DNA of 64,000 bases. Origin: Solirubrobacterales bacterium. Lineage in GTDB: Bacteria; Actinomycetota; Thermoleophilia; Solirubrobacterales; Solirubrobacteraceae. Of this stretch, positions 6,538-60,309 are shown one piece after another (position 1 is the first letter of the stretch; every line of letters starts with the position of its first letter). The notes beneath the pieces are model-generated. The model was not told the origin of the DNA. It worked only from the letters and a program-made list of their open reading frames with translations, and ran no database searches. A program made the translations under genes and the position numbers. The DNA lies in NCBI GenBank assembly GCA_013815355.1, contig JACDGG010000002.1:23908-87907 (forward strand). The letters are read 5' to 3'.

Positions 6538-6567
6538 TGTTAGCGTCACCGCCCGCCGAAACCTTAC
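6538..6567 (-). promoter_or_regulatory. Recurrent promoter-like motif instance GTAAGGTT-N15-GCTAACA
   Basis: Read on the minus strand. GAC precedes the GCT core. Points into the DUF2231/Mo-oxidoreductase genes. Confidence 0.5.
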
Positions 6568-6696
6568 CCCTGTTCGCCAGAGCCAGCTTGAACTGTGAGC
6601 AGAAGCTCAGGAGCTCGTCGCAGGCAGCATCGAATCTGCCCCTCCCTGGTCTCCGACCATAGTGCCGGGCTGTCCGTTCGGGCAAGCTAAAGGGTC

Positions 6697-7224
6697 GTGG
6701 CACACCAGCTGTGGACAATCGGACATTCCACCCACTCGTTGGAGGAGTTCGTCGGGCTGCTCTCACGCCACGAGATACGGCTGGTGTGCGATGTGCGTAC
6801 GGTGCCAAAGTCTCGACGTTACCCGCACTTCTTCGCAGACGCTCTCGCGGAGTCGCTCCCCGAGTACGGGGTTGACTATCGGCATCTCGCGGGATTGGGG
6901 GGATGGCGTCACGCTCAGCCTGATTCACCGAACGGGGCGTGGCGCAATGCGTCGTTTCGCGGGTACGCCGACTACGCGCTGAGCGCGGAGTTCGCTGACG
7001 CCCTGCTCGAGCTGTGCGAGCTGGCCATGCGAGGACGGACGGCCGTGATGTGCTCGGAGGCCCTATGGTGGCGCTGCCATCGTCGACTGATCGCCGACCG
7101 GCTCCTGACCGCTGGCTGGGAGGTGTGCCATATCGGGTCAGACGGACGCTCAAACCCACACGAGCTGGCCGACTTCGCTGTCGTGCGCTCAGACGGGATG
7201 GTGGTGTATCCGGGCGCCGCCTGA
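6697..7224 (+). CDS. DUF488 domain protein
   Basis: WTIGHSTHSLEEFVGLLSRHEIRLVCDVRTVPKSRRYPHF... is the canonical DUF488 N-terminus. Confidence 0.85.
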   Translation: MAHQLWTIGHSTHSLEEFVGLLSRHEIRLVCDVRTVPKSRRYPHFFADALAESLPEYGVDYRHLAGLGGWRHAQPDSPNGAWRNASFRGYADYALSAEFADALLELCELAMRGRTAVMCSEALWWRCHRRLIADRLLTAGWEVCHIGSDGRSNPHELADFAVVRSDGMVVYPGAA

Positions 7225-7248
7225 CTTGCGATGCTCACGAGGTAGGGC

Positions 7249-9242
7249 TCATGGTCCTTCTGATGGCCGCCGTGATGCCGGTGCCCTTCCCGGCGGCTGC
7301 GTGGGGATCTCGCGCGCGGGCGCCTTGGGGATCGGGCATGCCACTGGTTGGCCGACAGTGAGGAGTCCCGCACGGTCAGCGCCTCGTAGTAGGCGAAGTT
7401 GCGGGCCTTCTGCTCTTCGCTGAACGCGTCGCCGCGGAGGTGCATCGCCAACACGAGGTCGGCCTGCTTGACGACCTGCTTGCGATACAGGTCAAAGTAG
7501 GGGAAGTGCAGGAGCAGCGGGTACTGCTCGGGGGTGGTGGCGGCGAAGTCCCAGTGCTGGTGCTCGGTGAACCCTTCGGCTTGGGGATGGACGCCGAGCT
7601 GCTCGTCGTAGGGGATGCGCATGGCGTGCGAGGCGTCGCGCCAGGCGGCCGTCTCCTCGGTATCGACGCCGAGCTCAGCGGCACGATCGGGGTGGCGCTC
7701 GACCGCGTCTGCTGCCAAGCGCATGTTTCGCTGCGCCATGAGGTTGGTGTAGAGGTTGTTGTCGGCGACGGCGCTGTACTCGTCGGGGCCGGTGACCCCG
7801 TCGATACGAAATCCTCCGTCCATGTCGTGGTGGCCCAGTGAGCGCCACAGCCGCGCCGTTTCGACGAGTAGCTCCAGGCCGGTCTCACGTTCGAAGTCGT
7901 GATCGTCTGCGGCGGCTTGGTAGCGGCCGACGGCATCGGCGATGTCCGCGCCGACATGGAACGCCGCCGCTCCGGCTGGCCAGTACCCAGAGCATTCCTG
8001 TCCCTCGATCGTGCGCCACGGAAACGCGGCGCCGTTCAGACCCAGGAGCCTGGCACGCTCACGCGCCATCTCCAGCGTGGCGTGGCGCCAGCGCAGGGCG
8101 TCGCACGCGGCGTGCGGGGCGGTGTAGGTCAGGACGGGCAGGACGAACGTCTCGGTGTCCCAGAAGGCGTGCCCGTCATAGCCCGGGCCGGTCAGGCCCT
8201 TGGCGGCGATCGCGCGCTGCTCGCCCCTCGCGCCGGCCTGGAGCGTGTGAAACAGCGCGAAGCGCACCGCCTGCTGAAGCTCGGCGTCGCCTTCCAGCTC
8301 CACGTCTGCGCGCGCCCAGAAATCGTCGAGGTAGTCGCGCTGGCCGGCGAGCAGCCCGTCCCAGCCGGTGTGGCGCGCCTCCGCGAGTGCCGCGGAGACC
8401 TGGTCGCGCAGCGCCGCGCTCGAGCGCTGGCTCGACCACCCGTAGGCCAGCAGCTTGACCACACGCAGCCGTTGCCCGGGCTCGACGTCAGCGGTGACCG
8501 TCACGCGCGCGAGATCCTCGCTGCTCTCGGTCGCCGTCTCGATGCCGGATGGCCCCTCGACGATGTGGTCCATTCCGGCGGCCATCCGCAGCCCGCTCTT
8601 GCGCGTGACGTGAACCAGCACGGCGCGGGCGTCGTGGTCTGAGTGAAGCTCAGCGCGCAACGCCATGCCCAGCTCGGCCGCCGCCCTCGGGTCATTCTCG
8701 GCGAGAGGCATAGGCTCGTTGGCCACGAGCTCTGACTGCACGACCAGCCGCGCCGCGGCGTCCAGCGGCTCGACTTCATAGGACACGGCGGCCACCGCCC
8801 GCTGCACCAGAGAGACCACGCGCACCGAAGAGACCCGGACCCGCTTGCCTACCGGTGAGCGCCACTCGGCGCGGCGTCGCAGCACTCCGGCGCGGAAGTC
8901 CAGGATCCGCTCGTGGCTTTCCAGCTGACCGAAGCGCACATCGAAGGGCTCGTCATCGACCAGCAGGCGAATGATCTTGCCGTTGGTGACGTTGACCGCC
9001 GTCTGGTCCGCCTCGGGGTAGCCGTAGCCGGCCTCCGCGTAAGGCAGCGGACGCTCCTCGTAGAAGCCGTTGAGGTATGTGCCCGGCAGGCCCGGCGGCT
9101 CGCCCTCATCCAGATTGCCACGGAGCCCGATGTGCCCGTTTGCCAGTGCGAACACCGACCCGGCCTGGTCGAGCACGTCCAGGTCCAGCTCGGTCTCGCG
9201 GAGCGCCCACGGCTCCACGGCAAACGCCGGATGGGAGATCAC
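7249..9242 (-). pseudogene. GH65 disaccharide (kojibiose/trehalose/maltose-type) phosphorylase, internally deleted and frameshifted
   Basis: GH65 N-terminal and catalytic regions are continuous from 9242 to about 7350 (...FAYYEALTVRDSSLSA), then the frame turns into Arg-rich nonsense. The family C-terminal tail (PVACPIPKAPAREIPTQPPGRAP...*) sits at 7249-7347 in another frame. Roughly 130 codons are missing. Confidence 0.75.
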
Positions 9243-10092: not shown

Positions 10093-10122
10093 CTCTAGCG
10101 TCGTTTCGCGTGTAACTCTTAC
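10093..10122 (-). promoter_or_regulatory. Recurrent promoter-like motif instance GTAAGAGT-N15-GCTAGAG
   Basis: Minus strand. The extended -10 region GAAACGACGCTAGAGAG is identical to the copy at 30980-30996. Points into the uORF and the pgmB-GH65 genes. Confidence 0.55.
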
Positions 10123-10188: not shown

Positions 10189-10218
10189 GTAAGAACCATG
10201 ATCGAGGCGACGCTAGAT
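10189..10218 (+). promoter_or_regulatory. Recurrent promoter-like motif instance GTAAGAAC-N15-GCTAGAT
   Basis: Plus strand, divergent partner of 10093-10122. Points into the USP gene at 10288. Confidence 0.55.
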
Positions 10219-10287: not shown

Positions 10288-11175
10288 ATGTCGATGTTCA
10301 AGAACGTGCTGGTTGGCGTTGACGGGAGCAGTGGTGGCCGCGATGCTCTTGCCCTCGCGCTGAGACTCCTAAACGCCGCGGACCAGCTGACCTTGATTCA
10401 TGTCCATTTGGAAACGACGGGGATCGTCGTCCACGAGTTTGACTCCTCAGCGCGCGATGACGCCCAGAAGCTGCTGGAGAACGAGCGGGAAGCGGCGGGG
10501 CGGACGGCTGAGCTCCTCAGCATCGGAGCGGCGTCGGTTGGCGCCGGGCTGCACCGCGTCGCCGAACAAAACGCCGCGGATCTGCTAGCCGTGGGCACAT
10601 GCCGCCATGGTCTTGTTGGTCGCGTGCTGCTGGGTGACGACACGCGCGCTTCGCTTGACGGAGCCCCATGCGCGGTGGCAATCGCGCCCCTCGGGTACGC
10701 CCAAACGTCAGCGCCGATCGAGGTCATCGGTGTGGGCTACGACGCCTCGCCTGAGAGCGACGCTGCCCTCGCTCTGGCGCACACCCTGGCCTCTGACAGC
10801 GACGTGAAGGTCCGCGCGCTGAGCGTCGTCTCGGCGCTGCCCTACGCCTACGCCGGGCTTGCGCCGATGAACCTCGGCTCGCAGATCGACACGCTCTTGG
10901 GCGAAGCGCGCGATCGTTTGGACACACTCGACGGCGTGGAAGGCCGGGCAGCCTACGGGCTGCCCGGTGAGGAGCTCGCGGCGTTCACTGAAGAGGTCAA
11001 TCTGCTGCTCGTCGGGTCACGCAGCTACGGGCCCGTGCGGCACCTCATGCTGGGCAGCACCTCCAGGCATCTCACTCGCACCGCACGCTGCCCGCTCTTG
11101 GTCCTCCAACGCGCCGCCAGCAAGCCTGACCCGGGACAGGTAAGACCACGGGCTCAAGCGACGCTAGAGCAGTAA
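10288..11175 (+). CDS. Tandem-domain universal stress protein
   Basis: MSMFKNVLVGVDGSSGG... with two USP repeats and the terminal GSTSRHLTRTARCPLLVL motif. Start moved to ATG 10288, which follows GAAGGGAG. Confidence 0.85.
   Translation: MSMFKNVLVGVDGSSGGRDALALALRLLNAADQLTLIHVHLETTGIVVHEFDSSARDDAQKLLENEREAAGRTAELLSIGAASVGAGLHRVAEQNAADLLAVGTCRHGLVGRVLLGDDTRASLDGAPCAVAIAPLGYAQTSAPIEVIGVGYDASPESDAALALAHTLASDSDVKVRALSVVSALPYAYAGLAPMNLGSQIDTLLGEARDRLDTLDGVEGRAAYGLPGEELAAFTEEVNLLLVGSRSYGPVRHLMLGSTSRHLTRTARCPLLVLQRAASKPDPGQVRPRAQATLEQ
11140..11169 (+). promoter_or_regulatory. Recurrent promoter-like motif instance GTAAGACC-N15-GCTAGAG
   Basis: Embedded in the last codons of the USP gene. Followed by AAAGGAGGA and ATG 11196. 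Confidence 0.55.
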
Positions 11176-11195: not shown

Positions 11196-11393
11196 ATGCA
11201 TTGCTACCCATGCGCCGAGCAGGGCGTCAATCAACCAGCGGTCGCGCTGTGTCGCAGCTGCAGCGCCGGGCTGTGTCTCGAGCACCTGCGCGAAACGGCG
11301 GATATGTTCGCGGCGGGCCACATCCTCGAGTCTTGCCATCACGACACCTGGGGCGCGAGCAAGACCGGCAGGACAGGGGCGGTTGACCGCTAG
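11196..11393 (+). CDS. Small Cys-rich zinc-ribbon-like protein (DUF2180-like)
   Basis: MHCYPCAEQGVNQPAVALCRSCSAGLCLEHLRE matches the recalled DUF2180 pattern. Strong SD upstream. Confidence 0.65.
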   Translation: MHCYPCAEQGVNQPAVALCRSCSAGLCLEHLRETADMFAAGHILESCHHDTWGASKTGRTGAVDR

Positions 11394-16096: not shown

Positions 16097-17447
16097 AGCG
16101 CCCCATCGGGTCGTTGTGGTGGGCGGTGGCTTTGGTGGCCTGCAGGCCGTCCGTGGGCTTCGCCGGGCGCCGGTCGAGGTGACGCTGATCGATCGCCGTA
16201 ACTTCCACCTCTTCCAACCGCTGCTCTATCAGGTCGCGACGGGTGCCCTCTCGCCGGACGAGATAGCCACGCCGCTGCGCGCGATCCTCAAGCGCCAGCG
16301 CAACGTGCGCGTAGTGATGGGCGATGTCCGCCGGTTTGACCTCGACCGCCGAAGCGTCGTGATCGATGAGCTCCCAAACGGCGATCAGGGGGTCGCGATC
16401 GAATACGACACGCTGATCGTCGCCGGCGGCTCGCGTTACTCCTACTTCGGGCACGACGAGTGGCAGCGCTTCGCGCTGGAGATCAAGTCGCTGGAGAGCG
16501 CGCTTGCGGTCAGACGGCGGATCTTCACCGCGTTCGAGGCCGCCGAGATCGAACAGGACCCGGTGCGGCGCGAGGCCTGGTTGACCTTTGTGGTCGTCGG
16601 TGGCGGGCCGACCGGCGTCGAGATCGCCGGGCAGATCGCGGAGCTCGCGCGCGACACGCTGCCCCGCGACTTCCACGCGATCGATTCGCGCCACGCGCGG
16701 ATCCTGCTCATCGAGGCATCCGGACGCATCCTGCCGGCGTTCCCGGCGCGGCTATCAGCGAGAGCCGCCCGGGCGCTTGAGCGGCTCGGCGTCACGCTCG
16801 CGCTCGACACGGAAGTCGTCGACCTCGACCAGCGGTCGGTCTGCACTCGAGATCCTGACGGCACAACCGGGCACGTGCCGACGCAAACCATTGTGTGGGC
16901 GGCCGGCGTGGTCGCCTGCGAGCTCGCCGGTGCGCTCGCCGCCGCCACTGGGACTGAGCCCGACCGCACGGGAAGAGTGGCAGTGAGAGAAGACCTGACG
17001 ATCCAGGGACACCCTGAGGTGATCGCGCTCGGTGACATGGTCAGCGTGCACGACACCACTGGCAAGGATGTCCCGCTGCCCGGCCTGGCGTCGGTCGCGA
17101 TGCAGCAGGGTCGCTACGCCGCCAGGGCCGTCCGCGCGCGTCTACGAGGCGAGCGATCTCCGCCGTTCCGTTACGTCGATAAGGGAAACCTCGCCACGGT
17201 CGGCAGGGCGCGCGCCGTCGCGGACATCAAGGGCATCCAGATCAGCGGCACGCTCGCGTGGATGACCTGGCTGACGGTCCACATCTTCTACCTCATCGGC
17301 TTCCAGAACCGGCTGCTCGTCATAACCCGCTGGGCGTTCAGCTTCGTCACTCGCGGACGCGGCGCGAGACTGATCACCGGCTCTGCACACGCCGCCGCCG
17401 AGGCAGATGTCGTGAGCGCAGCGCCTGAGCGTAAGAACACGGGATGA
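16083..17447 (+). CDS. ndh: Type II NADH dehydrogenase (NDH-2)
   Basis: RVVVVGGGFGGL and FVVVGGGPTGVE folds, GDM motif and a C-terminal amphipathic/membrane segment. Confidence 0.9.
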   Translation: MSNPEAPHRVVVVGGGFGGLQAVRGLRRAPVEVTLIDRRNFHLFQPLLYQVATGALSPDEIATPLRAILKRQRNVRVVMGDVRRFDLDRRSVVIDELPNGDQGVAIEYDTLIVAGGSRYSYFGHDEWQRFALEIKSLESALAVRRRIFTAFEAAEIEQDPVRREAWLTFVVVGGGPTGVEIAGQIAELARDTLPRDFHAIDSRHARILLIEASGRILPAFPARLSARAARALERLGVTLALDTEVVDLDQRSVCTRDPDGTTGHVPTQTIVWAAGVVACELAGALAAATGTEPDRTGRVAVREDLTIQGHPEVIALGDMVSVHDTTGKDVPLPGLASVAMQQGRYAARAVRARLRGERSPPFRYVDKGNLATVGRARAVADIKGIQISGTLAWMTWLTVHIFYLIGFQNRLLVITRWAFSFVTRGRGARLITGSAHAAAEADVVSAAPERKNTG

Positions 17448-17460
17448 AGCGACGCTAGAG
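17431..17460 (+). promoter_or_regulatory. Recurrent promoter-like motif instance GTAAGAAC-N15-GCTAGAG
   Basis: Overlaps the ndh stop codon. ATG 17467 begins 13 nt after the G of GCT and no SD is present, so a leaderless arrangement. Confidence 0.6.
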
Positions 17461-17466: not shown

Positions 17467-17829
17467 ATGGACGCAACTCCCACACCGGCAGGCCTCGATG
17501 ATGCTCAGGCCCTCGAGCTGAACTGGGACGAGGTGCTCGAAGCGCTGGCAGCGCTCGAGGGCTCCCGCGTAGCGGTCCGTGTCGTTGAGCGCGGCGAGCA
17601 AGAGACGCTCGTTGTGGTCTTCCGTGGCCACCTCGGAGCAGCGACACGCGGAAAGCACCCAACGGTCTTCTTGCCGGTCCGCGCTGTCGGGGAAGACGAG
17701 CCCGGCGACGTGGAGGACACCGGCATCCACCTGCACCGCGATCGCTTTCACCCAAGCGTGGCCAGTCTCGGACGCACGGTTCTGCACATCGTCCAGGGCC
17801 CAGTGATCGTCAACGTGCGGGGCATATAG
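17467..17829 (+). CDS. Hypothetical protein (120 aa)
   Basis: GC3-rich ORF starting immediately after the motif. No family recognised. Confidence 0.55.
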   Translation: MDATPTPAGLDDAQALELNWDEVLEALAALEGSRVAVRVVERGEQETLVVVFRGHLGAATRGKHPTVFLPVRAVGEDEPGDVEDTGIHLHRDRFHPSVASLGRTVLHIVQGPVIVNVRGI

Positions 17830-22720: not shown

Positions 22721-23426
22721 CAGCTACCTCCGTTCGTCTGCTCAGATGAGCTGTCCATATCAGTCAGGGCGCGCTCGACTGCGTCCCTGAGTGCCTGCAG
22801 GCGGGGTGCGACATCGACCCCGACGTCAATGCGCAGCGCGCGCCGGCCACGCTTGGCGAGCACGTCGAAGTCGCTGCGCGCTTGGGCCTCCTTAACCGTC
22901 GAGAACGTGTAGGTGTGGCCGGGCACCGCCAGCTCGAATGGTGCGCCTGCTGATCAGTCCGCAGGCGCGGCACACCCTTGGTGAAAAGAAGCAGACCCAG
23001 CAGACAAAATTCCGCGAGCGGCCCCACATGCACACCATTAGCGCTTGTAAACGTGACGCGCAGCTCCTCGCTGGTCAGGCCGGCCGCCTTGACCTGCTCG
23101 CCCGTGCCCGCGGCGGTGCCCTGCACCCAACGCAGCCCCGGGTTGCTCCGCACCACCGCAGCCAGACCCTCCGGCGAGTCACCAGGAAGACCAAGCAGCA
23201 CCTCAGCGCTCTGAAGCATCTCCTGCCAGCGGCGCTCACCGTCCGCGTCACGAGTGAACCCTTCAACTCCCCGATGATCGCCGGGATAACGGAGCGCGGG
23301 CAGCAGATCCGGCTCGTAGAGCACTTCGACGCTGTCGGCGACCGCGCGTATCTGCTCGACCAGCTCCGGGGCGATCGGCGTGTCAATCGCGACCGTGAGC
23401 GTACGACTCGGGCTCTGCGTGCTCAC
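22720..23426 (-). pseudogene. D-2-hydroxyacid dehydrogenase-like gene lacking its NAD-binding half, followed by an unrelated tail coupled to gnd
   Basis: The first 150 aa or so look like the catalytic-domain N-terminus. No GxGxxG segment follows. The frame degenerates, and a second frame (...FELAVPGHTYTFSTVKEAQARSDFDVL...) runs to a TGATG overlap with gnd. Confidence 0.45.
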
Positions 23427-23666: not shown

Positions 23667-23697
23667 CCCTAGCGTCGACTGGCCCCCAGGTTCTTAC
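23667..23697 (-). promoter_or_regulatory. Recurrent promoter-like motif instance GTAAGAAC-N16-GCTAGGG
   Basis: Minus strand. Heads the co-directional string from 23426 to 17929 (gnd, HAD, DUF2090, zwf, NMO). Confidence 0.55.
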
Positions 23698-23782: not shown

Positions 23783-23812
23783 GTAAGACCAGTGCTGGGA
23801 TTGACGCTAAAG
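23783..23812 (+). promoter_or_regulatory. Recurrent promoter-like motif instance GTAAGACC-N15-GCTAAAG
   Basis: Divergent partner of 23667-23697. ATG 23817 begins 11 nt after the G of GCT, so a leaderless arrangement. Confidence 0.6.
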
Positions 23813-23816: not shown

Positions 23817-24542
23817 ATGAGGCCCACGCGTCAGATGTCCTCTAGCGATACGCCACCGGCGACCACTGACCGTGCGCCAGCACCGCTCAAGACGGCCGGG
23901 GTTCTAAAACGCGCCCCCCACCTCGGGCCAGCGACCCAAGCGGCGTCGCGCGCCGAGGTGCTGTTCGAGGTGCCGTTTGAGAGCCCGATGAGCGACGCTG
24001 ACGTTGCCTGTTTGGTCGCCGTGTTGAACATGGTGGTGTGCCTGCATCCGAAGCTGCATGACAGCCCGGCGAGTGCCGGCATCGTTCGCCTCGACTTCGG
24101 CTCGGGTCTGTTTCTCCTCCACGGCAACACCCAAAACGAGTGGAGCATTCAGGCTCGCACTTGGGAACGCCCCGACGAGCAGACGATCCACGACTGGCGT
24201 CTGCTCGCCGCAGACGCGGCTCGCCTGCTCGACCCCAGCGTGCCTGAGCCGATTCGCGCCGGAGCTTCCTGTCGAGTGCCCGTCCAGATCCGGCCGCGGG
24301 GCCTGATACGCCGCTGGCGAAGCTCACGGGCCGGGCGTTTCGCCCGTGAGGACGCGTCCGTCGGGCTGACGAGCTCCCCGGCCGACCGGGCCTCGAGAGA
24401 CCGCTCCGTGAGCGGGCGATCATCACAACGCGTCGCCGAGACGACGAGGCGAGCAGGGGCGGTGCCGGCGCAGGACCTGGCTGGCATCGAGCGCTGGGTG
24501 AACGAGGGCGGCCACATAGCCACAGACACGGTGGTCGACTGA
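23817..24542 (+). CDS. Hypothetical protein (241 aa) with C-terminal ERWVNEGG motif
   Basis: ORF starts directly at the motif. The central part is globular-looking and the tail is Arg/Ser-rich, ending in IERWVNEGGHI. Confidence 0.55.
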   Translation: MRPTRQMSSSDTPPATTDRAPAPLKTAGVLKRAPHLGPATQAASRAEVLFEVPFESPMSDADVACLVAVLNMVVCLHPKLHDSPASAGIVRLDFGSGLFLLHGNTQNEWSIQARTWERPDEQTIHDWRLLAADAARLLDPSVPEPIRAGASCRVPVQIRPRGLIRRWRSSRAGRFAREDASVGLTSSPADRASRDRSVSGRSSQRVAETTRRAGAVPAQDLAGIERWVNEGGHIATDTVVD

Positions 24543-24864: not shown

Positions 24865-24933
24865 CTCAGCTCCTCTGAGTCTCGCGTCGGCGCGGACGCC
24901 GCGGCGCCCCGCCAGGGTGCCCGCAACGCTCGT

Positions 24934-25197
24934 CTAGTGGGTCTTCCATCGGCCACTGTGCAACGCTGAGACGTGCCCTGGCCCTGCCAATGGGTCCAAC
25001 GACGCGCCGGATATGGACGCCAGGGCAGGCCACCGAGCAAACCCGCCTGGCTCGAGGTGATATGCAGCGAATGCGTAAGGCCGCCAGCCGCGCCCAACGA
25101 ATAGTTGGAGCGATCCACGTACAGCGAGGCTGTACGTGACAAAAGCAAGCGGGATCAGTCGCCGCCAGCGCTGTGAACTCAAGGCACTCGTGCTCAT
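24934..25197 (-). CDS. Small hypothetical protein (87 aa), one hydrophobic segment
   Basis: GAGGAGCTAGGAG lies immediately upstream of the ATG, but GC3 is only moderate for this genome. Confidence 0.3.
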   Translation of the reverse strand: MSTSALSSQRWRRLIPLAFVTYSLAVRGSLQLFVGRGWRPYAFAAYHLEPGGFARWPALASISGASLDPLAGPGHVSALHSGRWKTH

Positions 25198-25296
25198 CTC
25201 CTAGCTCCTCAGATCTCGTGTTTCTGGCCGGCACCATCGGCGGGCGTGAGACGCCCCACGATGCTCATCGCGTCCCCCTCGGTGGGGTTCACACGC

Positions 25297-25326
25297 CCAT
25301 AGCGTCGGCCGAGCCCCGGGTCTTAC
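25297..25326 (-). promoter_or_regulatory. Recurrent promoter-like motif instance GTAAGACC-N15-GCTATGG
   Basis: Minus strand, just downstream of the sigma gene. Points into the small ORFs at 25197 and 24864. Confidence 0.5.
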
Positions 25327-27137: not shown

Positions 27138-27504
27138 TGCTCTCCTCTCCGGGTGGGCCGCGTAAAGTGCGGACGATCCTTTCACACCCGCAGACTCGGT
27201 CCTACAAGGCCGCAAGCCACCGTCAGTACACGAACAATTCCAGACCGCAACCTACGACCCGGTTCGTTATGTCCGTAGCACGCTCGAGCACAACCGGCGC
27301 GCGAGTGAGCGTGGCTGTTTCGTAGCGACGCCGACGCTTGGGCGTCATGTGAGCTCGTCCAGGGACATCCTCGGTCCCGGGCACCTAGTAGGCGTAACGT
27401 TGAGCGGGTGGCAAGCGATCGGTTGAGCGTGGTGCTGAGGGCCGTGGCAAATACCGATTGGGAACGGCGCCGGCTCGCCGGTCGACCGGGTATGCGCGGC
27501 CGCG

Positions 27505-41861: not shown

Positions 41862-42157
41862 ACCGCGCCGGCATGCCGCGTTGCCACAACCTCCCGATCC
41901 TCTATGCCGGCGACGAAGTCGACTGCGGCGAAGCGTCCGACTCGACCCGCCACCGACCTGCTCGGAAAGCGGTGCAGGCCCGGATCGACCGGTAGCGCGC
42001 GCAGCCACGCCCGGTGATCGCCCAGCGCCTATCCCCAACGCACGCCGACCTGACGCAGCACCAAAAGCTCCTGCTCGTCCAGGCCGGCAACCGTCGAGGC
42101 CCGGCCCGACGTCACTCAGCGCCACGGGAGGACCAGGATCAAGCCGCGGACCTTGGA

Positions 42158-45555: not shown

Positions 45556-45825
45556 GTGACCTACGTGATCAATGAGCCCTGCATTGGCACGAAGGACTCC
45601 TCCTGTGTGGAGGTCTGCCCGGTGGACTGCATCCATCCAACGCCGGATGAGCCGGGCTTCGCCGAGGCCGAGATGCTGTACATCGACCCCGCCGAGTGCA
45701 TCGACTGCGACGCGTGCGTCGAGGCGTGTCCGGTGGACGCGATCACCGCGGGGGACCAAGTGCCGCCTGAGTGGGAGAAGTACATCCAGATCAACGCCGC
45801 CTACTACGAGCAGGTCAGCTCATGA
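45556..45825 (+). CDS. 7Fe-type ferredoxin
   Basis: VTYVINEPCIGTKDSSCVEVCPVDCIHP...CIDCDACVEACPVDAI. GTG start follows GGAAGGGAG. Confidence 0.85.
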   Translation: MTYVINEPCIGTKDSSCVEVCPVDCIHPTPDEPGFAEAEMLYIDPAECIDCDACVEACPVDAITAGDQVPPEWEKYIQINAAYYEQVSS

Positions 45826-45880
45826 TCGCCGCCGGTCTCCCGGCCCTCGCCCTGTGCCTCGCCGGCCAAGGCCCACGCTG

Positions 45881-46225
45881 ATGGAAACCAAGGTGATCGT
45901 GATGTTCGCGATCCTGCACGGGTCCGCGATCGTGCTCGGCACATGGCTAGTGGTAATGCTGGCTCGCTCAGCGCCCGACTTGGCGTCTCAGGGCAGCGAG
46001 GGCTCAGACGGCGGAGATGGTCGTCTCCCGATCCCGTCCAGCCCCAGCCCATCCGGCGGCGAACTGCCGTTGCCCGACTCACGGCCAGCGCGGGTACGCC
46101 TCCGCGAACCCATCCAGCCGGGCGCGCTATGGGCCCGTCCGGCGCGCAGGCCTCACCCCGAGATCGACCCGCGACCGGCACCCGCGAAGCGCCCGCTACG
46201 CCTCAGCGGTGCGGAGACCCGATGA
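45881..46225 (+). CDS. Small membrane-anchored Pro-rich protein (hypothetical)
   Basis: One N-terminal TM helix (VIVMFAILHGSAIVLGTWLVVML). ATGA overlap with the next ORF. Low complexity afterwards. Confidence 0.35.
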   Translation: METKVIVMFAILHGSAIVLGTWLVVMLARSAPDLASQGSEGSDGGDGRLPIPSSPSPSGGELPLPDSRPARVRLREPIQPGALWARPARRPHPEIDPRPAPAKRPLRLSGAETR

Positions 46226-46746
46226 GCACGGCACGTGTCCAGGATCAGCGGTGCGTCGAGACGCACACCCGCTCGGAGACGAGGACGGTGCTTCTTGGCG
46301 TGAGTGCCGCGTTCCTGCTCGCCAGTGCTCTGGGAGTGGTAGTCAACACCGCCTCCCCGTTTCAACACGGCTGGTGGCTTGTGGCGTACCTGAGTCTCGT
46401 TGGCGGCCTCTCCCAACTTCTGCTCGGGGCCGGCCTGTCCGTCCTCGCCGAGCGCACCCAGAGCCAAACGCCACCGGACACGCTGCTCCTGGCGCAGGTT
46501 GGGCTGTGGAGTCTCGGCACCGCAGCGGTAGCCACCGGCGACCTGGCCGGTACGAGGCTGGTCCTGCTCCTCGGCAGCGCTCTCTTGTTGATCGATTTGG
46601 TGCTGTTCACCGTGGGGCTCTCGCGCCTGAAACACGACGCCGCACGGCGTGCGCCAGCCTGGGAGCGCTGCTACGCCGCGCTACTCGTCTTCCTAGCCAT
46701 CAGCGTGCTGGTGGGCAGCTCACTCGCGGGCGCGCTGCCCGGATAG
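46222..46746 (+). CDS. Four-TM membrane protein sharing the LVGGLSQLLLGAG helix motif
   Basis: 174 aa. QHGWWLVAYLSLVGGLSQLLLGAG resembles the first His-helix of 43492..44679. Confidence 0.5.
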   Translation: MSTARVQDQRCVETHTRSETRTVLLGVSAAFLLASALGVVVNTASPFQHGWWLVAYLSLVGGLSQLLLGAGLSVLAERTQSQTPPDTLLLAQVGLWSLGTAAVATGDLAGTRLVLLLGSALLLIDLVLFTVGLSRLKHDAARRAPAWERCYAALLVFLAISVLVGSSLAGALPG

Positions 46747-46754
46747 GCGGATCG

Positions 46755-49142
46755 ATGCAACTCCCGCAAGCCGCTCACGAGGAGACTGCCGCTGAGCAAC
46801 CCGCCACCCAGCTACGACCGCAGGCGCGCAGGCACGCGGCAGCCAACGGCCTCACGACCGCCGTCCTGGGGATGCCGCGGATCGGTCGCAGGCGCGAGCT
46901 GAAGGCGGCACTCGAGTCCTATTGGAATCAACAGACACCGGCCAACGAGCTCGAGCGTGTGGCGAGTGACCTGCGCCTGGGACACCTGACGAGGGCAGCA
47001 GCCGCGGGGATAGACGTCCTACCCTCCAACGACTTCTCGCTGTATGACCACGTACTCGACACGTGCGTGCTCGTCGGAGCGATCCCGGAGCGCTTCCGGG
47101 GCCTGGAGGTGTCCTCGATGGAGCGCTACTTCGCGATGGCGCGCGGTTCGGGCGACGTGCGGCCATTGGCGATGACCAAGTGGTTTGACACCAACTACCA
47201 CTACCTCGTACCCGAGATCTCCCCGGATACGCAGTTTGAGCTGTGTGCAGAGAAGCCGCTCTCAGAGTTCCGCGAGGCGCTGGAGTGGGGGCTCTCCACC
47301 CGACCGGTGTTGCTCGGCCCCGTCTCGTTTCTGCTGCTGGCCAGGCCCGAGCGCCCGGATACCCGGCCGCTGGACGCGTTGGAGAGGCTGTTGCCGGTAT
47401 ATGAACAGTTGCTCTGCGAGTTGGGGGCTGCTGGTGTGCAGTCGGTCCAGATCGACGAGCCCTGCCTCGTCACCGACCTAACCGCTGCCGAGCTGGCGGC
47501 GATCGAGCGCTCCTGGGCACGCTTGGCTGGCGCCGCGTCCGGTATCGAGCTCACATTGGCTACCTATTTCGGCGGCCTCGGCGAGAACCTCGAGCGCATG
47601 CTGAGCCTGCCCGCTCACGAATTCCACCTCGACCTGGTCCGTGCGCCTGAGCAACTAGAGCCCGCGGTCCGGACGCTAGGGCCCACCGCGCGCCTCTCGC
47701 TCGGGGTCATCGACGCGCGGAACGTGTGGGCCAGCGACCTGACGGCCATCGTGCACCTCGTCCAGCCTGTCCTCTCACGCCTCGGTGCAGGGCGTGTGCG
47801 CCTGGCGCCCTCGGGCTCTCTGTTGCACATCCCCTATTCGCTCACGCGCGAGCAGCGGATCGATAGCGAGCTCAGCAGCTGGCTGGCGTTTGGCGAGGAG
47901 AAGCTGCGCGAGCTACAGACGCTCAGGGAGGCGCTCACCACGATGCCGACCCGATGGCGCGAGGCGCTCGAGACCAACCGCAAGATGCTCGACGCGCGCG
48001 GCGCCTCGCCGCGCGTACACGATGTCCAGGTGGGGGCTCGGCTGGCCGGTCTCCACGATGCCGACGTCGCGCGCCGCTCGCCCTACGCCGAGCGTGCGCA
48101 GGCCCACGCGCAGCGGCTGAGCCTGCCCGATCTGCCGACCACGACGATCGGCTCGTTTCCGCAAACCCAAGGGATACGGTCCGCTCGCCGCGAATGGGCT
48201 GACGGGACACTTGACCCGCAGGAGTACGATCACTTTCTCGAGGACGAGATCCGCACCGCGATCGAACGTCAGGAGCAGGTGGGGTTGGACGTGCTCGTGC
48301 ATGGCGAGCCCGAGCGCAACGATATGGTCGCCTACTTCGCCGAGCGGCTACGAGGCTTTGCCGTCACCGAAAACGGGTGGGTGCAGTCATATGGATCGCG
48401 CTGCGTGAAGCCGCCAATCCTGTTCGGTGACGTCTCGCGTGCAGAGCCGATCAGCGTTCGCTGGTGGCGCTTTGCCCAGGGACTGACCGATCGTCCTGTC
48501 AAGGCCATGCTCACCGGCCCGGTCACGATGCTGGTCTGGTCCTTCGTTCGCGACGACCAGCCACGGGAACTCACCGCCCGCCAGCTCGCCCTCGCGATCG
48601 GTGATGAGGCTCGGGATCTCGAGCGGGCCGGCGCTCAGATCATCCAGATCGACGAGGCCGCGTTGCGTGAGGGCCTGCCCCTGCGCCACACGGCGCAGGC
48701 CGCCTACCTGCGCTGGGCTGTGGACTGCTTTCGCCTCGCTTGCGCCGGCCTGGGCGATGCAACCCAGGTGCACGCCCACATGTGCTACTCCCAGTTCGAG
48801 GAGATCATCGAGCACATCCTCCGAATGGACGCCGACGTGCTCTCGATCGAGGCATCGCGCTCAGACGCGCGGCTGCTCGACGCATTCGGCGGTGACGCCT
48901 ACCCGAACCAGCTCGGCCCCGGTGTCTATGACGTCCACTCGCCGCGCGTGCCCAGCGTGCAGGAGATCGAGACGCTCCTGGCAAACGCCGAACGACACAT
49001 CCCACGGGAGCGCCTTTGGGTCAACCCCGACTGCGGCCTGAAGACCCGCACCTGGGATGAGGTTCTGCCCGCCCTCGAGCACGTCGTCGCGGCCGCCAAG
49101 CAGCGCCGACTCACCCCGCGAGCGACGACTGATAGATCGTGA
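46755..49142 (+). CDS. metE: Cobalamin-independent methionine synthase
   Basis: LGMPRIGRRRELKAALESYW N-terminus, duplicated barrel, and the Zn motifs HMCYS and NPDCGLKTR. Only ATG 46755 leaves the conserved N-terminus intact. Confidence 0.9.
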   Translation: MQLPQAAHEETAAEQPATQLRPQARRHAAANGLTTAVLGMPRIGRRRELKAALESYWNQQTPANELERVASDLRLGHLTRAAAAGIDVLPSNDFSLYDHVLDTCVLVGAIPERFRGLEVSSMERYFAMARGSGDVRPLAMTKWFDTNYHYLVPEISPDTQFELCAEKPLSEFREALEWGLSTRPVLLGPVSFLLLARPERPDTRPLDALERLLPVYEQLLCELGAAGVQSVQIDEPCLVTDLTAAELAAIERSWARLAGAASGIELTLATYFGGLGENLERMLSLPAHEFHLDLVRAPEQLEPAVRTLGPTARLSLGVIDARNVWASDLTAIVHLVQPVLSRLGAGRVRLAPSGSLLHIPYSLTREQRIDSELSSWLAFGEEKLRELQTLREALTTMPTRWREALETNRKMLDARGASPRVHDVQVGARLAGLHDADVARRSPYAERAQAHAQRLSLPDLPTTTIGSFPQTQGIRSARREWADGTLDPQEYDHFLEDEIRTAIERQEQVGLDVLVHGEPERNDMVAYFAERLRGFAVTENGWVQSYGSRCVKPPILFGDVSRAEPISVRWWRFAQGLTDRPVKAMLTGPVTMLVWSFVRDDQPRELTARQLALAIGDEARDLERAGAQIIQIDEAALREGLPLRHTAQAAYLRWAVDCFRLACAGLGDATQVHAHMCYSQFEEIIEHILRMDADVLSIEASRSDARLLDAFGGDAYPNQLGPGVYDVHSPRVPSVQEIETLLANAERHIPRERLWVNPDCGLKTRTWDEVLPALEHVVAAAKQRRLTPRATTDRS

Positions 49143-55707: not shown

Positions 55708-56556
55708 TCACGCGCCCGTCTCGACGGGGACTCCGACGAGGCTGCCCCACTCCGTCCAGGAGCCGTCGTAATTCTTGACCTGCTCGTGGCCGAGCAGCTC
55801 GTGCAGCACGAACCAGGTATGCGCCGAGCGCTCGCCGATGCGGCAGTAGGCGATGATCTCCTCGCCGTTCAGGACGCCCTTGCCGGTGTATAGGTCACGC
55901 AGCTCCTGCGCCGACTTGAACGTGCCGTCCTCCTGCACGGCCTGCGTCCACGGCACCGAGGCGGCGCTCGGGATGTGCCCGGCGCGCTGCGCACCCTCGT
56001 GCTCGTAGCCGGACGGTGAGACGATCTCGCCCGCGAACTCCGCCGGGGAGCGCACGTCGACGAGCCTTGTCGGGGCATCGACGGCCGCGAGCACCTCGTC
56101 GCGGTACGCGCGGATCGCGTCGTCGCCGGGCTGGGCGGCAAACTCAGCGGCCGGATAGTCAGGGACCGCGGTGCTCGTCGGTCGTCCGTCTGCGATCCAC
56201 TTTTCGCGCGGCCCGTTGAGCAGCAGCACCCTCTCGTGGCCGTAGTACTTCAGGTACCAGTAGGTGTAGGCGGCGAACCAGTTGTTGCGGTCGCCGTACA
56301 GCACGATCGTGTGCTCGCCTGAGACGCCGCGGCTCCCGAACAACCGGCCGAAGTCCTCGGGGCCGAGGAAGTCACGCCTGAGAGGGTCCTGCAAGTCCTG
56401 CTGCCAGTCCAAGCCGATCGCACCGGGTATGTGCGCCGCGGCATACAGCGTGTGGTTCTCATCGACCTCGATGATGCGTATCTCCTCGTCATTCAAGTGC
56501 TGTTCGAGCCACTGCGCCTCTACGAGTACGTCCTTCGCGTAATCAGACACGGGCAA
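55708..56556 (-). CDS. Thiosulfate/3-mercaptopyruvate sulfurtransferase (tandem rhodanese)
   Basis: Two rhodanese repeats and the active-site loop YCRIGERSAH. GTG 56550 (VSDYAK...) is an alternative start. Confidence 0.9.
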   Translation of the reverse strand: MPVSDYAKDVLVEAQWLEQHLNDEEIRIIEVDENHTLYAAAHIPGAIGLDWQQDLQDPLRRDFLGPEDFGRLFGSRGVSGEHTIVLYGDRNNWFAAYTYWYLKYYGHERVLLLNGPREKWIADGRPTSTAVPDYPAAEFAAQPGDDAIRAYRDEVLAAVDAPTRLVDVRSPAEFAGEIVSPSGYEHEGAQRAGHIPSAASVPWTQAVQEDGTFKSAQELRDLYTGKGVLNGEEIIAYCRIGERSAHTWFVLHELLGHEQVKNYDGSWTEWGSLVGVPVETGA

Positions 56557-57211
56557 ATCGCCTTTCCTGTTGGTGTTGATCCTCCGCGGCTCGGTCGGCG
56601 AGGCGCTGTTTAAGCTTGCATCGGGCGTCGTGGAGCGTCTTGTAGAGAGCTCCCGGCGTCGAGTCCAGCCGCTCCGCGAGCTCCTTCGCCGCCACGTCGT
56701 TGACAGCCATGGCGATCAGGACCTCACGCTGGTGGGAGCTCAGATCATGCGCAATCAGATGACCGATCGTGCGGGCGAGCTCACTCGCCTCGCTGAGATC
56801 TTGCGGGTCGTCCCCATCGCCGACACGCTCAACAGGCCACTGCTCGCCATCGGTTGGTGTCTCGCGGGTATGCCCCAAGCGCCGTCGGATCTCGCCCGGC
56901 ACCTCGAGCTGAGCAAAACGACGCGCCCAGGTGGTGAACAGCGCATCGCCGCGGAACTGGTCAAGCTTTCCCAGGATCGCCATCAGCGCATCATCTGCGG
57001 CCTGCAGCGCGAGCTCGTCGAGATCGCGACCTGAAGGGTGCGCCAATCCCGCGGTTCGCCGCCGAACCTCGAAGCGAGCCTCACTCAGCAGAACTGCGTG
57101 CAGCCTTCGGATGGCCGCCTCACGCACCAAGCCCTCGGAGCGCAGCTGCTCGAGCCACCTGCGCGACTGCGGATCAAGCCTGCGTCCCACGGCTGGAGTG
57201 GGCACGCTCAT
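56543..57211 (-). CDS. ECF-like sigma-70 family RNA polymerase sigma factor (paralogue 2)
   Basis: Region 2 (DELALQAADDALMAILGKLDQFRGDALFTTWARRFAQLE) and region 4 (LSSHQREVLIAMAVNDVAAKELAERLDSTPGALYKTLHDARCKLK). Start set at ATG 57211. The track ORF extends to 57418. Confidence 0.75.
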   Translation of the reverse strand: MSVPTPAVGRRLDPQSRRWLEQLRSEGLVREAAIRRLHAVLLSEARFEVRRRTAGLAHPSGRDLDELALQAADDALMAILGKLDQFRGDALFTTWARRFAQLEVPGEIRRRLGHTRETPTDGEQWPVERVGDGDDPQDLSEASELARTIGHLIAHDLSSHQREVLIAMAVNDVAAKELAERLDSTPGALYKTLHDARCKLKQRLADRAAEDQHQQERRFARV

Positions 57212-57922: not shown

Positions 57923-57953
57923 CAATAGCGTCAAACGTCGATGCGCGTCTTAC
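57923..57953 (-). promoter_or_regulatory. Recurrent promoter-like motif instance GTAAGACG-N16-GCTATTG
   Basis: Minus strand. Heads the string of hypothetical gene, sigma gene and rhodanese gene. Leaderless arrangement. Confidence 0.6.
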
Positions 57954-57993: not shown

Positions 57994-58024
57994 GTAAGAA
58001 AGCGTGGCGCGTCGGACGCTGAAG
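57994..58024 (+). promoter_or_regulatory. Recurrent promoter-like motif instance GTAAGAAA-N16-GCTGAAG
   Basis: Divergent partner of 57923-57953. ATG 58029 begins 11 nt after the G of GCT. Confidence 0.55.
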
Positions 58025-58028
58025 AGAT

Positions 58029-58235
58029 ATGAGCACCCCTCCTCTTCCCGGCGCGGCGCATGCGCCCAGCATTTCGTCGGGCGCGCGTGGTCGGCTGGCG
58101 AGCATCAATCCCGCGGTGCGATCACGTCGCGTTGCAGCTGTGCGTCGAGCGATGCGTCGCCGCGATCAAAGCACCGCGCACGCATCGCCCGCGACCGGCA
58201 ACCCCGCACCACCCCTGCAGGCCCGGCGCAGGTGA
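58029..58235 (+). CDS. Small Arg-rich protein (68 aa), doubtful
   Basis: Begins exactly at the leaderless position of the motif, with the same ATGAGCACC opening as 60314. Only moderate GC3. Could instead be a non-coding or antisense transcript. Confidence 0.3.
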   Translation: MSTPPLPGAAHAPSISSGARGRLASINPAVRSRRVAAVRRAMRRRDQSTAHASPATGNPAPPLQARRR

Positions 58236-58821: not shown

Positions 58822-58852
58822 CCTCAGCGTCGCCCAACAGCTCCGGTCTTAC
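58822..58852 (-). promoter_or_regulatory. Recurrent promoter-like motif instance GTAAGACC-N16-GCTGAGG
   Basis: Minus strand, about 110 nt upstream of the OsmC start. Confidence 0.5.
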
Positions 58853-58903: not shown

Positions 58904-58933
58904 GTAAGAACTTGCCGTGCTCGGGCGCTATGA
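58904..58933 (+). promoter_or_regulatory. Recurrent promoter-like motif instance GTAAGAAC-N15-GCTATGA
   Basis: Divergent partner of 58822-58852. Followed by GAGAGGAG and ATG 58971. Confidence 0.55.
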
Positions 58934-58970
58934 AGTAACGGAACATTGATCGAGAGGAGCATTGATCGCC

Positions 58971-60233
58971 ATGCCAAGCCGAGCCATACACAAGCCCTCT
59001 CTTCCACGCGTGGTTGTTGCCGGCGGCGGAGTCGCTGGGCTGGAGACGCTATTGGCGTTGCACGCGCTTGCGCGAGACCGTGTGGATGTCACGGTGCTGG
59101 CACCGGAGCTGAGGTTCGTCAACCTCTCGATGGCCGTCGATCAACCCTTCAAGCCGAAGCGTGGTCGTGGCTTTCGCCTCGAGGACACCGCGGTCGAGCT
59201 CGGTGCTCGCTGGCACCACGGAGTTCTCGACCACATCGAGCACGAAGCACATCGAGTGTTCACCAGGGATGGCGAGGAGCTCCCGTACGACATGCTCGTT
59301 CTTGCCGTCGGGGCTCATCCCGAACGGGAGTGGCAGTCGGTGGATGTCCTGACCTATCACGGCGGGCACGACGGGCCCAGCTACGAGCTGCTGCTCCACC
59401 ACCTTCTCGAGGGGCAGATCAGCAGGGTGGCGTTCGTCAAGCCAGCAGGAGCGAGCTGGCCGCTGCCGCTTTATGACCTGGCGTTGATGACCGCCGCGGA
59501 ATGCGCCCGTCACGGGCGCTCCGGGGTCGAGCTGAGCCTGATAACGCCCGAGGAGGAGCCGCTGGGGATGTTTGGCGCTGCCGCCAGCGCTAAGGTCCGC
59601 GAGCTTCTGGAGGCTGCCGGGGTCACTCTGCACACGAGCAGCTACGGCGCGCCGACTCACCGGGGATGGCTCGAGATCTCTCCCGGCGAGCGCGGTATGC
59701 GGGTCGACCGAGTCATCACCGAGCCACGACTGGCCGGTCCCCGGCTGCGCGGCATCGCGTGTGCGGCCGATGGGTTCATACAAACCGATGCCCACGGTCG
59801 GGTGATCGGCTTGGACGATGTGTTCGCAGCGGGTGACGCGACGACGTTTCCGGTCAAGCAGGGTGGCCTCGCCGCCCAGGAAGCCGACGCCGTCGCCGAA
59901 GCGATCGCTGCATCCGTGGGTGCCGAGATCGAGCCGCAGCCGTTTCATCCGATTCTCCGCGGCGTGTTGCTGACCGGGGGACCCGCGCGCTACATGCGCG
60001 CGGACATCAGCGGCGGCGCCGGCGATGACTCGACGATCTCTCGCGAGGCGCTGTGGTGGCCGCCGGACAAGATCTCCGGACGCTACCTCGCGCCCTATCT
60101 CTCGAGCCAGGTCGGCGAGGCCCTTGACGTCATGCCTCAGGGTGAGGATGTGATCCCCATCGAGATCCCACTTGAGTCCGTGGCGTCGAGCACGCTCGGC
60201 TTCGGTGAGCTCACGGACCTGCCGCTCAGCTGA
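58971..60233 (+). CDS. FAD-dependent oxidoreductase, sulfide:quinone oxidoreductase-like
   Basis: RVVVAGGGVAGLETLLAL fold and FAAGDATTFPVKQGGLAAQEA. ATG 58971 preferred over the TTG at 58962. Confidence 0.8.
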   Translation: MPSRAIHKPSLPRVVVAGGGVAGLETLLALHALARDRVDVTVLAPELRFVNLSMAVDQPFKPKRGRGFRLEDTAVELGARWHHGVLDHIEHEAHRVFTRDGEELPYDMLVLAVGAHPEREWQSVDVLTYHGGHDGPSYELLLHHLLEGQISRVAFVKPAGASWPLPLYDLALMTAAECARHGRSGVELSLITPEEEPLGMFGAAASAKVRELLEAAGVTLHTSSYGAPTHRGWLEISPGERGMRVDRVITEPRLAGPRLRGIACAADGFIQTDAHGRVIGLDDVFAAGDATTFPVKQGGLAAQEADAVAEAIAASVGAEIEPQPFHPILRGVLLTGGPARYMRADISGGAGDDSTISREALWWPPDKISGRYLAPYLSSQVGEALDVMPQGEDVIPIEIPLESVASSTLGFGELTDLPLS

Positions 60234-60279
60234 CGATCAACACGACGCGCGAGAACGTCAGCGCCCCGGGCGGTCCTGC

Positions 60280-60309
60280 GTAAGAAACCGCTCCAGCAGC
60301 GCGCTAAGG
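60280..60309 (+). promoter_or_regulatory. Recurrent promoter-like motif instance GTAAGAAA-N15-GCTAAGG
   Basis: ATG 60314 begins 11 nt after the G of GCT and no SD is present, so a leaderless arrangement. Confidence 0.6.

Follow-up and report, generated by a model that had tools for sequence, protein, structure and literature searches.

A conserved bipartite motif as the likely core promoter of an alternative-sigma regulon linked to a divergent ECF family in Solirubrobacteraceae

What kind of element recurs fifteen times in 64,000 nucleotides (nt) of DNA from a Solirubrobacterales bacterium? The stretch concerned (contig JACDGG010000002.1 of assembly GCA_013815355.1, positions 23,908 to 87,907) is referred to here as the window, and positions are counted from its first letter. 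An original prediction, made from the letters and their open reading frames (ORFs), listed 15 copies of a motif in which a GTAAGA(A/C)C box is followed at a fixed distance by GCTA, and proposed that they mark an undescribed alternative-sigma regulon in the style of sigma factors of the extracytoplasmic function (ECF) type. That proposal is supported by the conservation of the motif, its orientation, its fixed offset from start codons and its linkage to a single family of sigma genes. We conclude that the 15 sites are probably the core promoters of one alternative-sigma regulon, whose sigma factor most likely belongs to a lineage-specific, divergent ECF family.

Solirubrobacteraceae are among the commonest actinobacterial families in soil, and Thermoleophilia are abundant in soils and deserts. 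To our knowledge, these groups are almost uncultured, and their promoters or regulons have not been described. A literature search found no paper on promoters or sigma regulons of Solirubrobacterales or Thermoleophilia; the ECF Hub, which lay outside that search, may hold a predicted group motif, and the accessible portion of the ECF reclassification paper contains no mention of the motif or of these taxa. What seems new here is the lineage and the promoter signature; the mechanism, an alternative sigma factor acting at a bipartite promoter, is textbook and not surprising.

A bipartite motif in the window, its relatives and metagenomes

All 15 copies listed in the original prediction carry the motif at the positions and on the strands given for them, with none missed and none false; we number them 1 to 15 along the window. 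The pentamer GTAAG occurs 25 times on the two strands of the window, compared with ~63 expected from its composition (67% G+C), and in 15 of these 25 occurrences GCT follows 18 or 19 nt later (binomial tail 8e-16). Such pairs averaged 1.1 in 500 dinucleotide-type shuffles, with a maximum of 5. In the window, 60% of GTAAG occurrences thus serve as −35 boxes, and the scarcity of the pentamer is consistent with selection against stray copies. A matrix built from the sites scores them at 21–40 bits, the next independent match at 11–14 bits and the maxima of 20 shuffles at 8–18 bits; because the matrix was trained on the same 15 sites, the gap between 14 and 21 bits shows that the list is complete and clean, and is not a measure of significance.

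The spacing had been given as N15/16, a figure that holds between GTAAGAMC and GAC-GCT; between GTAAG and GCT, the spacer measures 18 nt in 10 sites and 19 nt in 5. The four divergent pairs are real, their GTAAG boxes starting 67, 86, 41 and 52 nt apart, and all 15 sites are intergenic or lie inside the last codons of an upstream gene. Three sites had been said to share the 13-mer GAAACGACGCTAG. There are three copies, but only those at 10093(−) and 30965(+) belong to sites. The third, at 27121–27133 (+), lacks a GTAAG box and is antisense to a gene for a Crp-like protein, within its first codons (VPSVVS); this copy was ruled out as a 16th site, having no −35 box and lying within coding sequence. 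A match to the 13-mer is unexpected by chance (0 in 100 shuffles), and this copy faces GAF-ANTAR genes 370 nt away.

Is the motif peculiar to this genome? GTDB genomes were searched with the SQR-like flavoprotein of the window (58962–60233), which gave nine loci, mostly from metagenome-assembled genomes (MAGs) of Solirubrobacteraceae or Solirubrobacterales and including those labelled L002–L009; three further loci, L098–L100, were chosen by one sigma protein of the window (sigma-W, described below) alone. In L002–L005, at 71–84% protein identity and ~67% G+C, the same motif lies upstream of orthologs of window genes, namely those for transketolase (tkt), transaldolase (tal), DUF488, ETF-ubiquinone oxidoreductase (ETF-QO), universal stress protein (USP), the SQR-like flavoprotein, PrpD and an intact MFS transporter. 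The motif was not found in L006–L008, which are more distant relatives, and L009 has a drifted version of it.

JGI metagenome contigs were scanned once with the strict pattern GTAAGAMC-N12/13-GACGCTAGAG. This returned 87 stretches, ~75 of them at 61–73% G+C; ~10 low-G+C matches look like chance. The flanks of the metagenome contigs hold many extra matrix matches that lie outside the strict-pattern selection. Window and loci together yielded 170 unique sites in 712 kb, and the 90 sites that lie outside the window and were not selected as seeds give the same consensus, (C/G)GTAAGA(A/C)C ... C-GACGCTA-G-A-G. Near-invariant among these independent sites are G, T, A, A, G and A of the −35 box and C, G, C and T of the −10 box. 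A matrix scan of relatives had been suggested as a check on the regulon; it finds the motif kept upstream of orthologous genes in Solirubrobacteraceae genomes and in metagenome contigs, and across the relatives and ~75 contigs the conserved form is (C/G)GTAAGA(A/C)C-N-GACGCTAGAG.

Conservation of this kind bears on whether the copies might simply belong to a dispersed repeat, or to a mobile cassette, and play no part in regulation. Some cassettes of promoter plus gene fragment have indeed been duplicated: the cassette at site 10 is a paralogous copy of that at site 14, both carrying SQR-like sequence. Yet conservation in the window and in the 170-site set is limited to the two boxes, while spacers and flanks vary; terminal repeats are lacking; and sites are kept at orthologous positions across genomes. 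We regard a repeat of this sort as scarcely conceivable.

Core-promoter geometry and predicted start sites

How, then, does the motif sit relative to the genes? Among the 170 sites, GTAAG and GCT are separated by 18 nt in 144 and by 19 nt in 26. Of the 128 testable sites, only 9% lie deep inside a called gene (75% for random positions), and 58% have a gene start on the same strand no more than 150 nt away (19% when the sites are flipped and 7% at random). The original prediction had named equal frequency inside genes and random orientation as findings that would speak against it; the enrichment runs the other way on both counts. Furthermore, an ATG or GTG (RTG) begins exactly 9 nt past the T of GCT in 77 of the 170 sites (45%), each of the other offsets accounting for ~5. 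In the window, the genes after sites 6, 7, 12 and 15 have their start codon at this position, and an offset of 10–11 nt is seen at sites 11 and 5.

A start codon so close to GCT leaves no room for a separate −10 element; +1 is accordingly best estimated as the purine of that codon, which would place GTAAGA at −34 to −29 and GACGCTA at −14 to −8. The fixed spacer, the orientation to genes and the fixed offset from start codons together indicate that the motif is, as far as its placement in the sequence can tell, a core promoter and not an operator, with +1 estimated from start-codon phasing. We propose that it comprises a −35 element, (C/G)GTAAGA(A/C)C, at about −35 to −28 and a −10 element, GACGCTA(G)(A)G, at about −14 to −5, with 17–18 nt between GTAAG and CGCT. 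The predicted start of transcription is a purine, 9 nt past the T of GCT, that in ~45% of sites would be the first base of ATG or GTG, and many transcripts would accordingly be leaderless.

These features have to be set against the possibility that the motif is a bipartite operator, bound by the Crp-like protein (26379–27215) or by a response regulator and acting on ordinary housekeeping promoters. Genes for Crp-like, LuxR-type and ANTAR regulators do occur in the same surroundings, and some activators also have conserved bipartite sites with fixed spacing. However, the two halves of the motif are unrelated in sequence, forming neither a direct nor an inverted repeat, the orientation toward the gene is strict, the start codon leaves no space for a −10 of its own in nearly half of the sites, and no TANNNT with a conserved final T occurs inside or after the motif. 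We consider an operator very unlikely.

A further alternative is that the motif is simply the housekeeping promoter type of the lineage, recognized by a sigma-A of altered specificity. The density of sites is very high, 15 for roughly 35 transcription units in 64 kb, and TTGACA/TATAAT-like promoters were not detected in the stretches scanned by consensus for sigma-70-type promoters (22.5–37.5 kb and 55.6–58.1 kb). Nevertheless, the positions after GCTA in the 170 sites are G/A, A/G and G, and where a TANNNT hexamer would have its sixth base no T is conserved; a −10 box that lacks the conserved final T is not that of a housekeeping promoter; the sigma-A −10 is TANNNT across Actinobacteria, as quoted for HrdB (PMC12019637). 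The matrix scan of the window found no site in the 20 kb from 37 to 57 kb, which hold metE, cytochrome oxidase, cydAB and two-component genes, nor does either sigma gene of the window have a site in its own upstream region. The genes that do lie downstream belong to stress and redox functions, not to ribosomal or biosynthetic ones. A housekeeping role is in our view most improbable.

A linked family of ECF-type sigma factors

If the motif is a core promoter of an alternative sigma factor, which sigma factor reads it? The original prediction mentioned two sigma factors encoded in the window, which we place at 25393–26016 (−) (sigma-W, about 208–211 aa, the candidate cognate factor) and at 56543–57211 (−) (sigma-2, 222 aa); they are 51% identical and belong to one family. 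Sigma-W and its orthologs (~200 aa) score 38–50 bits on the NCBIfam sigma70-ECF model, whose cutoff is 42.9, the window copy falling just below it and the orthologs above. Sigma-W matches Pfam Sigma70_r4_2, its best relatives in the PDB are E. coli sigma-E and AlgU-type ECFs, and it does not reach the cutoff of any named NCBIfam subfamily. More than 1300 homologs exist in public data, of which the closest either carry the bare name 'ECF subfamily' or derive from Solirubrobacteraceae MAGs. Judged by its sequence, sigma-W is an ECF-type factor with regions 2 and 4 only.

Sigma-W orthologs of 55–67% identity were found by tblastn in 13 motif-selected contigs; counted over at least 13 motif-selected loci, the identities range from 55 to 70%. 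Where the 3′ flank is present, a high-scoring site usually lies 18–65 nt past the stop codon, while the next gene varies. Two of the three sigma-selected loci have a site 62–64 nt past the sigma-W stop, with genes for both an MFS sugar transporter and an aldose epimerase behind it. In L035/L012 a site has sigma-W as the third gene after it, which makes autoregulation of sigma-W plausible there.

Site 11 is followed by the DUF6166 gene and, further downstream, by sigma-2, whose stop overlaps with the beginning of a rhodanese gene (56556–55708). The 257-nt gap between DUF6166 and sigma-2 contains no terminator-like or sigma-70-like signal; sigma-2 is probably co-transcribed from site 11, which makes autoregulation plausible. 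The gene is easily missed, since a spurious ORF on the + strand (56570–57034) overlaps it. No close ortholog of sigma-2 (>50% identity) is present among the loci retrieved.

In L022, L098, L041, L063 and L069, a leaderless variant of the motif comes straight before a third paralog, which we call sigma-P and whose start follows directly on GTAAGAAAGCTGCTCTCCGGC(G/C)TCGCTTATGgagcGTG. In L022 (531–1721, +) and L098 (2983–4173, +) it is a single 396-aa ORF made up of an N-terminal segment, an ECF core and a C-terminal HxxxCxxC segment that is ZAS-like and is found in sigma-P only among the three paralogs; a further copy lies at L099:78–689. The N-terminal segment, 'AWRxxRLxxAGF...HALLELVDRGCxxELAARI', is encoded as a separate 74-aa gene in L041/L063. 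No Pfam family spans the whole protein. Sigma-P is absent from the window, as is its small 'AWR...AGF...HALLELV' protein or domain, which was also looked for.

A hidden Markov model of the family, run over every ORF in 776 kb, found 25 family members and only ~3 weak matches to other ECFs, so the sigma genes that accompany the motif are essentially all of one family. The idea that ECF-like sigma genes near the motif, both window copies included, form a single family was borne out by this search and by tblastn. We infer from this linkage that the cognate sigma is probably a member of the family. The holoenzyme would most likely contain one of its members, two of which are encoded in the window: sigma-W just upstream of site 8, and sigma-2, whose probable transcription from site 11 would provide positive feedback.

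The same evidence bears on whether the promoters are read instead by an alternative sigma from outside this family, either a group-3 homolog of WhiG/FliA or a SigB/SigF-like stress sigma encoded elsewhere. The FliA consensus has N15 spacing. The WhiG consensus, TAAA/GCCGATAA, overlays TAAG-N15-GACGCTAG with the same spacing, the two sharing a TAA core in the −35 and a CG.TA core in the −10; sigma-W, moreover, is not autoregulated by the motif, and WhiG homologs have been reported in Thermoleophilia (PMC8325347). Yet when the motif is laid on the flagellar/WhiG (sigma-28) consensus (−35 TAAA, −10 GCCGATAA), it departs from it at 4 of 12 positions, whereas at most 2 mismatches are allowed in the published search (PMC8325347), and TAAA-N15-GCCGATAA was rejected as its identity. 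The CGA that is critical in sigma-28 promoters is replaced by a near-invariant CGC, and motility, pilus and sporulation genes are lacking among the ~170 downstream genes. The linked sigma genes are ECF-type, with 25 of the one family, as against no group-3 sigma gene seen near any site (no dedicated group-3 model was run). An alternative sigma from outside the linked family thus seems unlikely.

Several points weigh against assigning the motif to this ECF family, or to a core promoter as drawn above. Most loci were chosen through the motif or through regulon genes, so that site density and regulon size are biased upward. The motif is not upstream of sigma-W in the window, L098 or L014; autoregulation is the usual hallmark of ECF factors, and for the best-linked paralog that hallmark is missing. 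Pfam detects no anti-sigma domain beside sigma-W, whose neighbours are the Crp-like gene and an MFS remnant, or beside sigma-2, which is flanked by DUF6166 and rhodanese; since several ECF groups have no anti-sigmas, this absence does not exclude an ECF factor. The linkage of sigma genes and targets could be mere clustering in a 'stress island', and all three paralogs are candidates. The +1 position is drawn only from start-codon phasing, and that signal is itself mixed. In a recount on a slightly larger deduplicated set, 79 sites had RTG at +9; 29 of these open a long ORF and the other 50 open only short ORFs of 6–55 codons (for example L051:843(−), L057:1290(+), L019:305(−) and L076:12695(+)), so the signal does not come purely from leaderless genes. 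Some of the short ORFs are conserved between contigs, such as M(D/N)LxLIEL... before the ferredoxin-reductase gene and VSD(T/K)P... before the MFS transporter. RTG at +1 is either a preferred initiating sequence or the mark of leaderless upstream ORFs.

The surroundings of the sigma-W gene show further regularities. Genes for GAF-ANTAR or receiver-ANTAR proteins (RNA-binding antiterminators) adjoin it in the window (27505–28906, +) and in all three sigma-selected loci (L098:9005–9658, L099:5739–6389 and L100:8782–9531). The 250–300 nt upstream of its orthologs are conserved in L098 (9710–10000), L099 (9700–10000), L066 (8500–8800, −) and L022 (2620–2900), where they contain an imperfect inverted repeat, GATTTGTCATYGGYCAAACWATCC, and a block, GCAGGCCGAAGAATGATCGGC; the leader differs in the window and L100, where it reads CCAGACCCYGGTGAYGT...CCAACGTCTGGAGC. 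No Rfam family reaches its gathering threshold anywhere in the window, and at E<=1 there is no cobalamin or other riboswitch upstream of metE and neither a known ANTAR-target nor any other Rfam RNA in the sigma-W leader, so that a known riboswitch or ANTAR-target RNA is unsupported by Rfam at these positions.

Content of the proposed regulon and comparison with known systems

Which genes would the promoters drive? The assignments in the original prediction were mostly right by Pfam; those at three sites had to be corrected, as noted below. Site 1 (6538–6567, −), the weakest at 21.3 bits, precedes a DUF2231 membrane protein gene (6492–5899) and one for a molybdopterin oxidoreductase with cytochrome b561 (5757–3997). 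Sites 2 and 3 form a divergent pair: site 2 (10093–10122, −) faces genes for a beta-phosphoglucomutase (beta-PGM)-like HAD hydrolase (9982–9239) and a GH65 phosphorylase (9242–6972), and site 3 (10189–10218, +) a tandem USP gene (10288–11175). Within the last codons of the latter lies site 4 (11140–11169, +), at the head of a series that runs to 17447 and encodes DUF2180 (11196–11393), DUF488, a ferredoxin-reductase-like flavoprotein, transketolase, transaldolase and NDH-2. The best-scoring site (site 5; 17431–17460, +; 39.9 bits) overlaps the end of ndh and precedes a leaderless 120-aa ORF (17467–17829) that has no Pfam match.

Site 6 (23667–23697, −), with GTG at the predicted start, is divergent with site 7 (23783–23812, +). 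Behind site 6, a truncated 2-hydroxyacid dehydrogenase gene (22764–23426), overlooked previously, precedes gnd (22720–21701), genes for HAD and DUF2090 proteins, zwf (20393–18927) and the NMO gene (18996–17929); behind site 7 is a leaderless 241-aa ORF (23817–24542) ending in an ERWxNEGG motif. Site 8 (25297–25326, −), 64 nt past the sigma-W stop, was also reassigned, and drives only the decayed remnant of an MFS transporter gene, frameshifted and truncated (24866–25290), together with a 72-aa ORF (24864–24646); the transporter is intact in L002, L098 and L099. Site 9 (30965–30994, +) overlaps the stop of an HdrB-like CCG gene and precedes genes for a 98-aa 'FDPERG' protein (31018–31314), an AlkA-like glycosylase and a SulP/STAS transporter (to 34059). 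The third correction concerns site 10 (36790–36820, −), where a 104-aa N-terminal fragment of an SQR-like flavoprotein gene (36775–36461) is followed by the ETF-QO gene (36323–34599).

The remaining sites lie beyond the region that holds none. Site 11 (57923–57953, −) precedes a leaderless DUF6166 gene (57917–57468), then probably sigma-2 and rhodanese. Its divergent partner, site 12 (57994–58024, +), is followed by a leaderless ORF of 68 aa (58029–58235), basic and rich in arginine and proline but of poor coding quality; the transcript would head for the 3′ end of the OsmC gene, which is convergent, and its product may be a small RNA or antisense transcript instead of an mRNA. Sites 13 (58822–58852, −) and 14 (58904–58933, +) diverge toward genes for an OsmC-like peroxiredoxin (58783–58262) and the SQR-like pyridine-nucleotide-disulfide oxidoreductase (58962–60233), respectively. 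Site 15 (60280–60309, +) precedes a leaderless PrpD/MmgE gene (60314–61792), then a split ComA-like gene and DUF488 (to 62996).

Some genes of the window are decayed or partial, mostly straight behind sites: the MFS gene (24866–25290, −), the 2-hydroxyacid dehydrogenase gene (22764–23426, −) and the SQR-like fragment (36461–36775, −). To these can be added a GH65 fragment of 128 aa (41503–41889, −) and the GH65 gene behind site 2, in which the last ~150 codons (6972–7450, −) read as junk. Gene decay, cassette shuffling or assembly errors could be the cause. A second tandem-USP gene (40450–41322, +) closely resembles the N-terminus of that at 10288–11175 and adjoins the GH65 fragment; the region from 40450 to 41889 looks like a partial duplicate of the 7–11 kb region, without any copy of the motif. 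In the metE ORF (46017–49142), ~240 N-terminal codons are not protein-like, and the ~0.9 kb that precede the real MetE start probably do not code for protein (45800–46750).

Recurrent targets in the metagenome contigs add genes for a pyruvate-oxidase-like thiamine pyrophosphate enzyme, PRC-barrel, MpsC-like and SPFH/Band 7 proteins, an AhpD-like CMD protein, an SDR and a glycosyltransferase. The whole looks like a programme of general stress protection and redox supply of NADPH, and its functions are like those of a general stress or dormancy response. Such a regulon would supply reducing power through the oxidative and non-oxidative pentose-phosphate pathway (zwf, gnd, tkt and tal) together with stress protection, its other parts being NDH-2, ferredoxin reductase, ETF-QO, the SQR-like flavoprotein, OsmC, USP, disaccharide phosphorylase with beta-PGM, AlkA and transporters.

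A broader reading can be offered only tentatively, and we think it possible rather than probable. This would be the master general-stress regulon of Solirubrobacteraceae, answering to desiccation, oxidative stress or dormancy and run by an unclassified ECF family with at least three paralogs (sigma-W, sigma-2 and sigma-P), which would share one promoter type, respond to different inputs and have no classical anti-sigma. The purine-TG start would then be an intrinsic part of the promoter, with close to half of the transcripts opening with a leaderless gene or a leaderless short upstream ORF, which would add translational control.

The practical consequences of the narrower reading, one ECF-directed regulon, are threefold. 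A promoter signature of 27 bits would allow a stress regulon to be annotated straight from MAGs and metagenomes. The sigma factor and its promoter would be a testable pair, possibly orthogonal to those already known and hence of use in synthetic biology. In addition, the gene content suggests which functions are co-induced: pentose-phosphate supply of NADPH, alternative respiratory flavoproteins, peroxiredoxins, USPs and disaccharide phosphorylases.

How does this system compare with those already described? The closest promoter type is that of ECF40, represented by SigD of Corynebacterium and Mycobacterium (GTAAC(A/G)...GAT; GTAAC-N17-18-CGAT) and by ShbA of Streptomyces (CGTAAC-N16-CGATGA) (PMC6338062, PMC12019637). 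The architecture and spacing are nearly the same, GTAAG-N17/18-CGCT(A) here corresponding to the SigD promoter, and in both cases the setting is actinobacterial and the sigma factors are two-domain ECFs. In contrast, the fifth base of the −35 is G here (89 of the 90 independent sites) and C in ECF40, and the variable base of the −10 CGNT is C here (88 of 90) and A in ECF40, giving a core of CGCT, not CGAT. The regulons also differ, being cell envelope genes for SigD or hrdB for ShbA and a stress and redox set here. The likeness of the promoters raised the question of ECF40 membership, which the sigma proteins rule out: the family scores 19–21 bits on the NCBIfam ShbA model, whose cutoff is 209, and its profile, run against the PDB, matches SigD region 4 at 18.8 bits (E 0.009), with sigma-E and AlgU ranking higher and the ShbA entries 9ISN/9M84 not reached at E<=0.01.

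The likeness to general stress regulons, those of SigB in Bacillus and Streptomyces, SigF in mycobacteria and EcfG/PhyR in alphaproteobacteria, lies in analogous gene content (USP, OsmC, AhpD-like CMD, PRC-barrel, SPFH, sugar-phosphorylase and NADPH-supply genes are shared) and in the many promoters spread across a stress gene cluster. The consensus sequences are GTTT-N-GGGTA for SigB/F and GGAAC-N16-17-CGTT for EcfG, and the motif described here is unrelated to either. No partner-switching genes (RsbV/W or PhyR/NepR) lie next to the sigma genes.

With ECF regulons in general, such as those of E. coli sigma-E, B. subtilis sigma-W/X and Streptomyces sigma-R, the system shares a bipartite promoter with an A-rich −35 core and a CG-containing −10, a small sigma factor with regions 2 and 4 only, a stress-related regulon and the placement of some paralogs (sigma-P and probably sigma-2) behind their own promoter type. 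It differs from them in that no adjacent anti-sigma was found for sigma-W or sigma-2, sigma-W has no motif upstream, and the family stays below every named NCBIfam cutoff; the regulon, for its part, is seemingly unusually large and is dominated by central redox metabolism.

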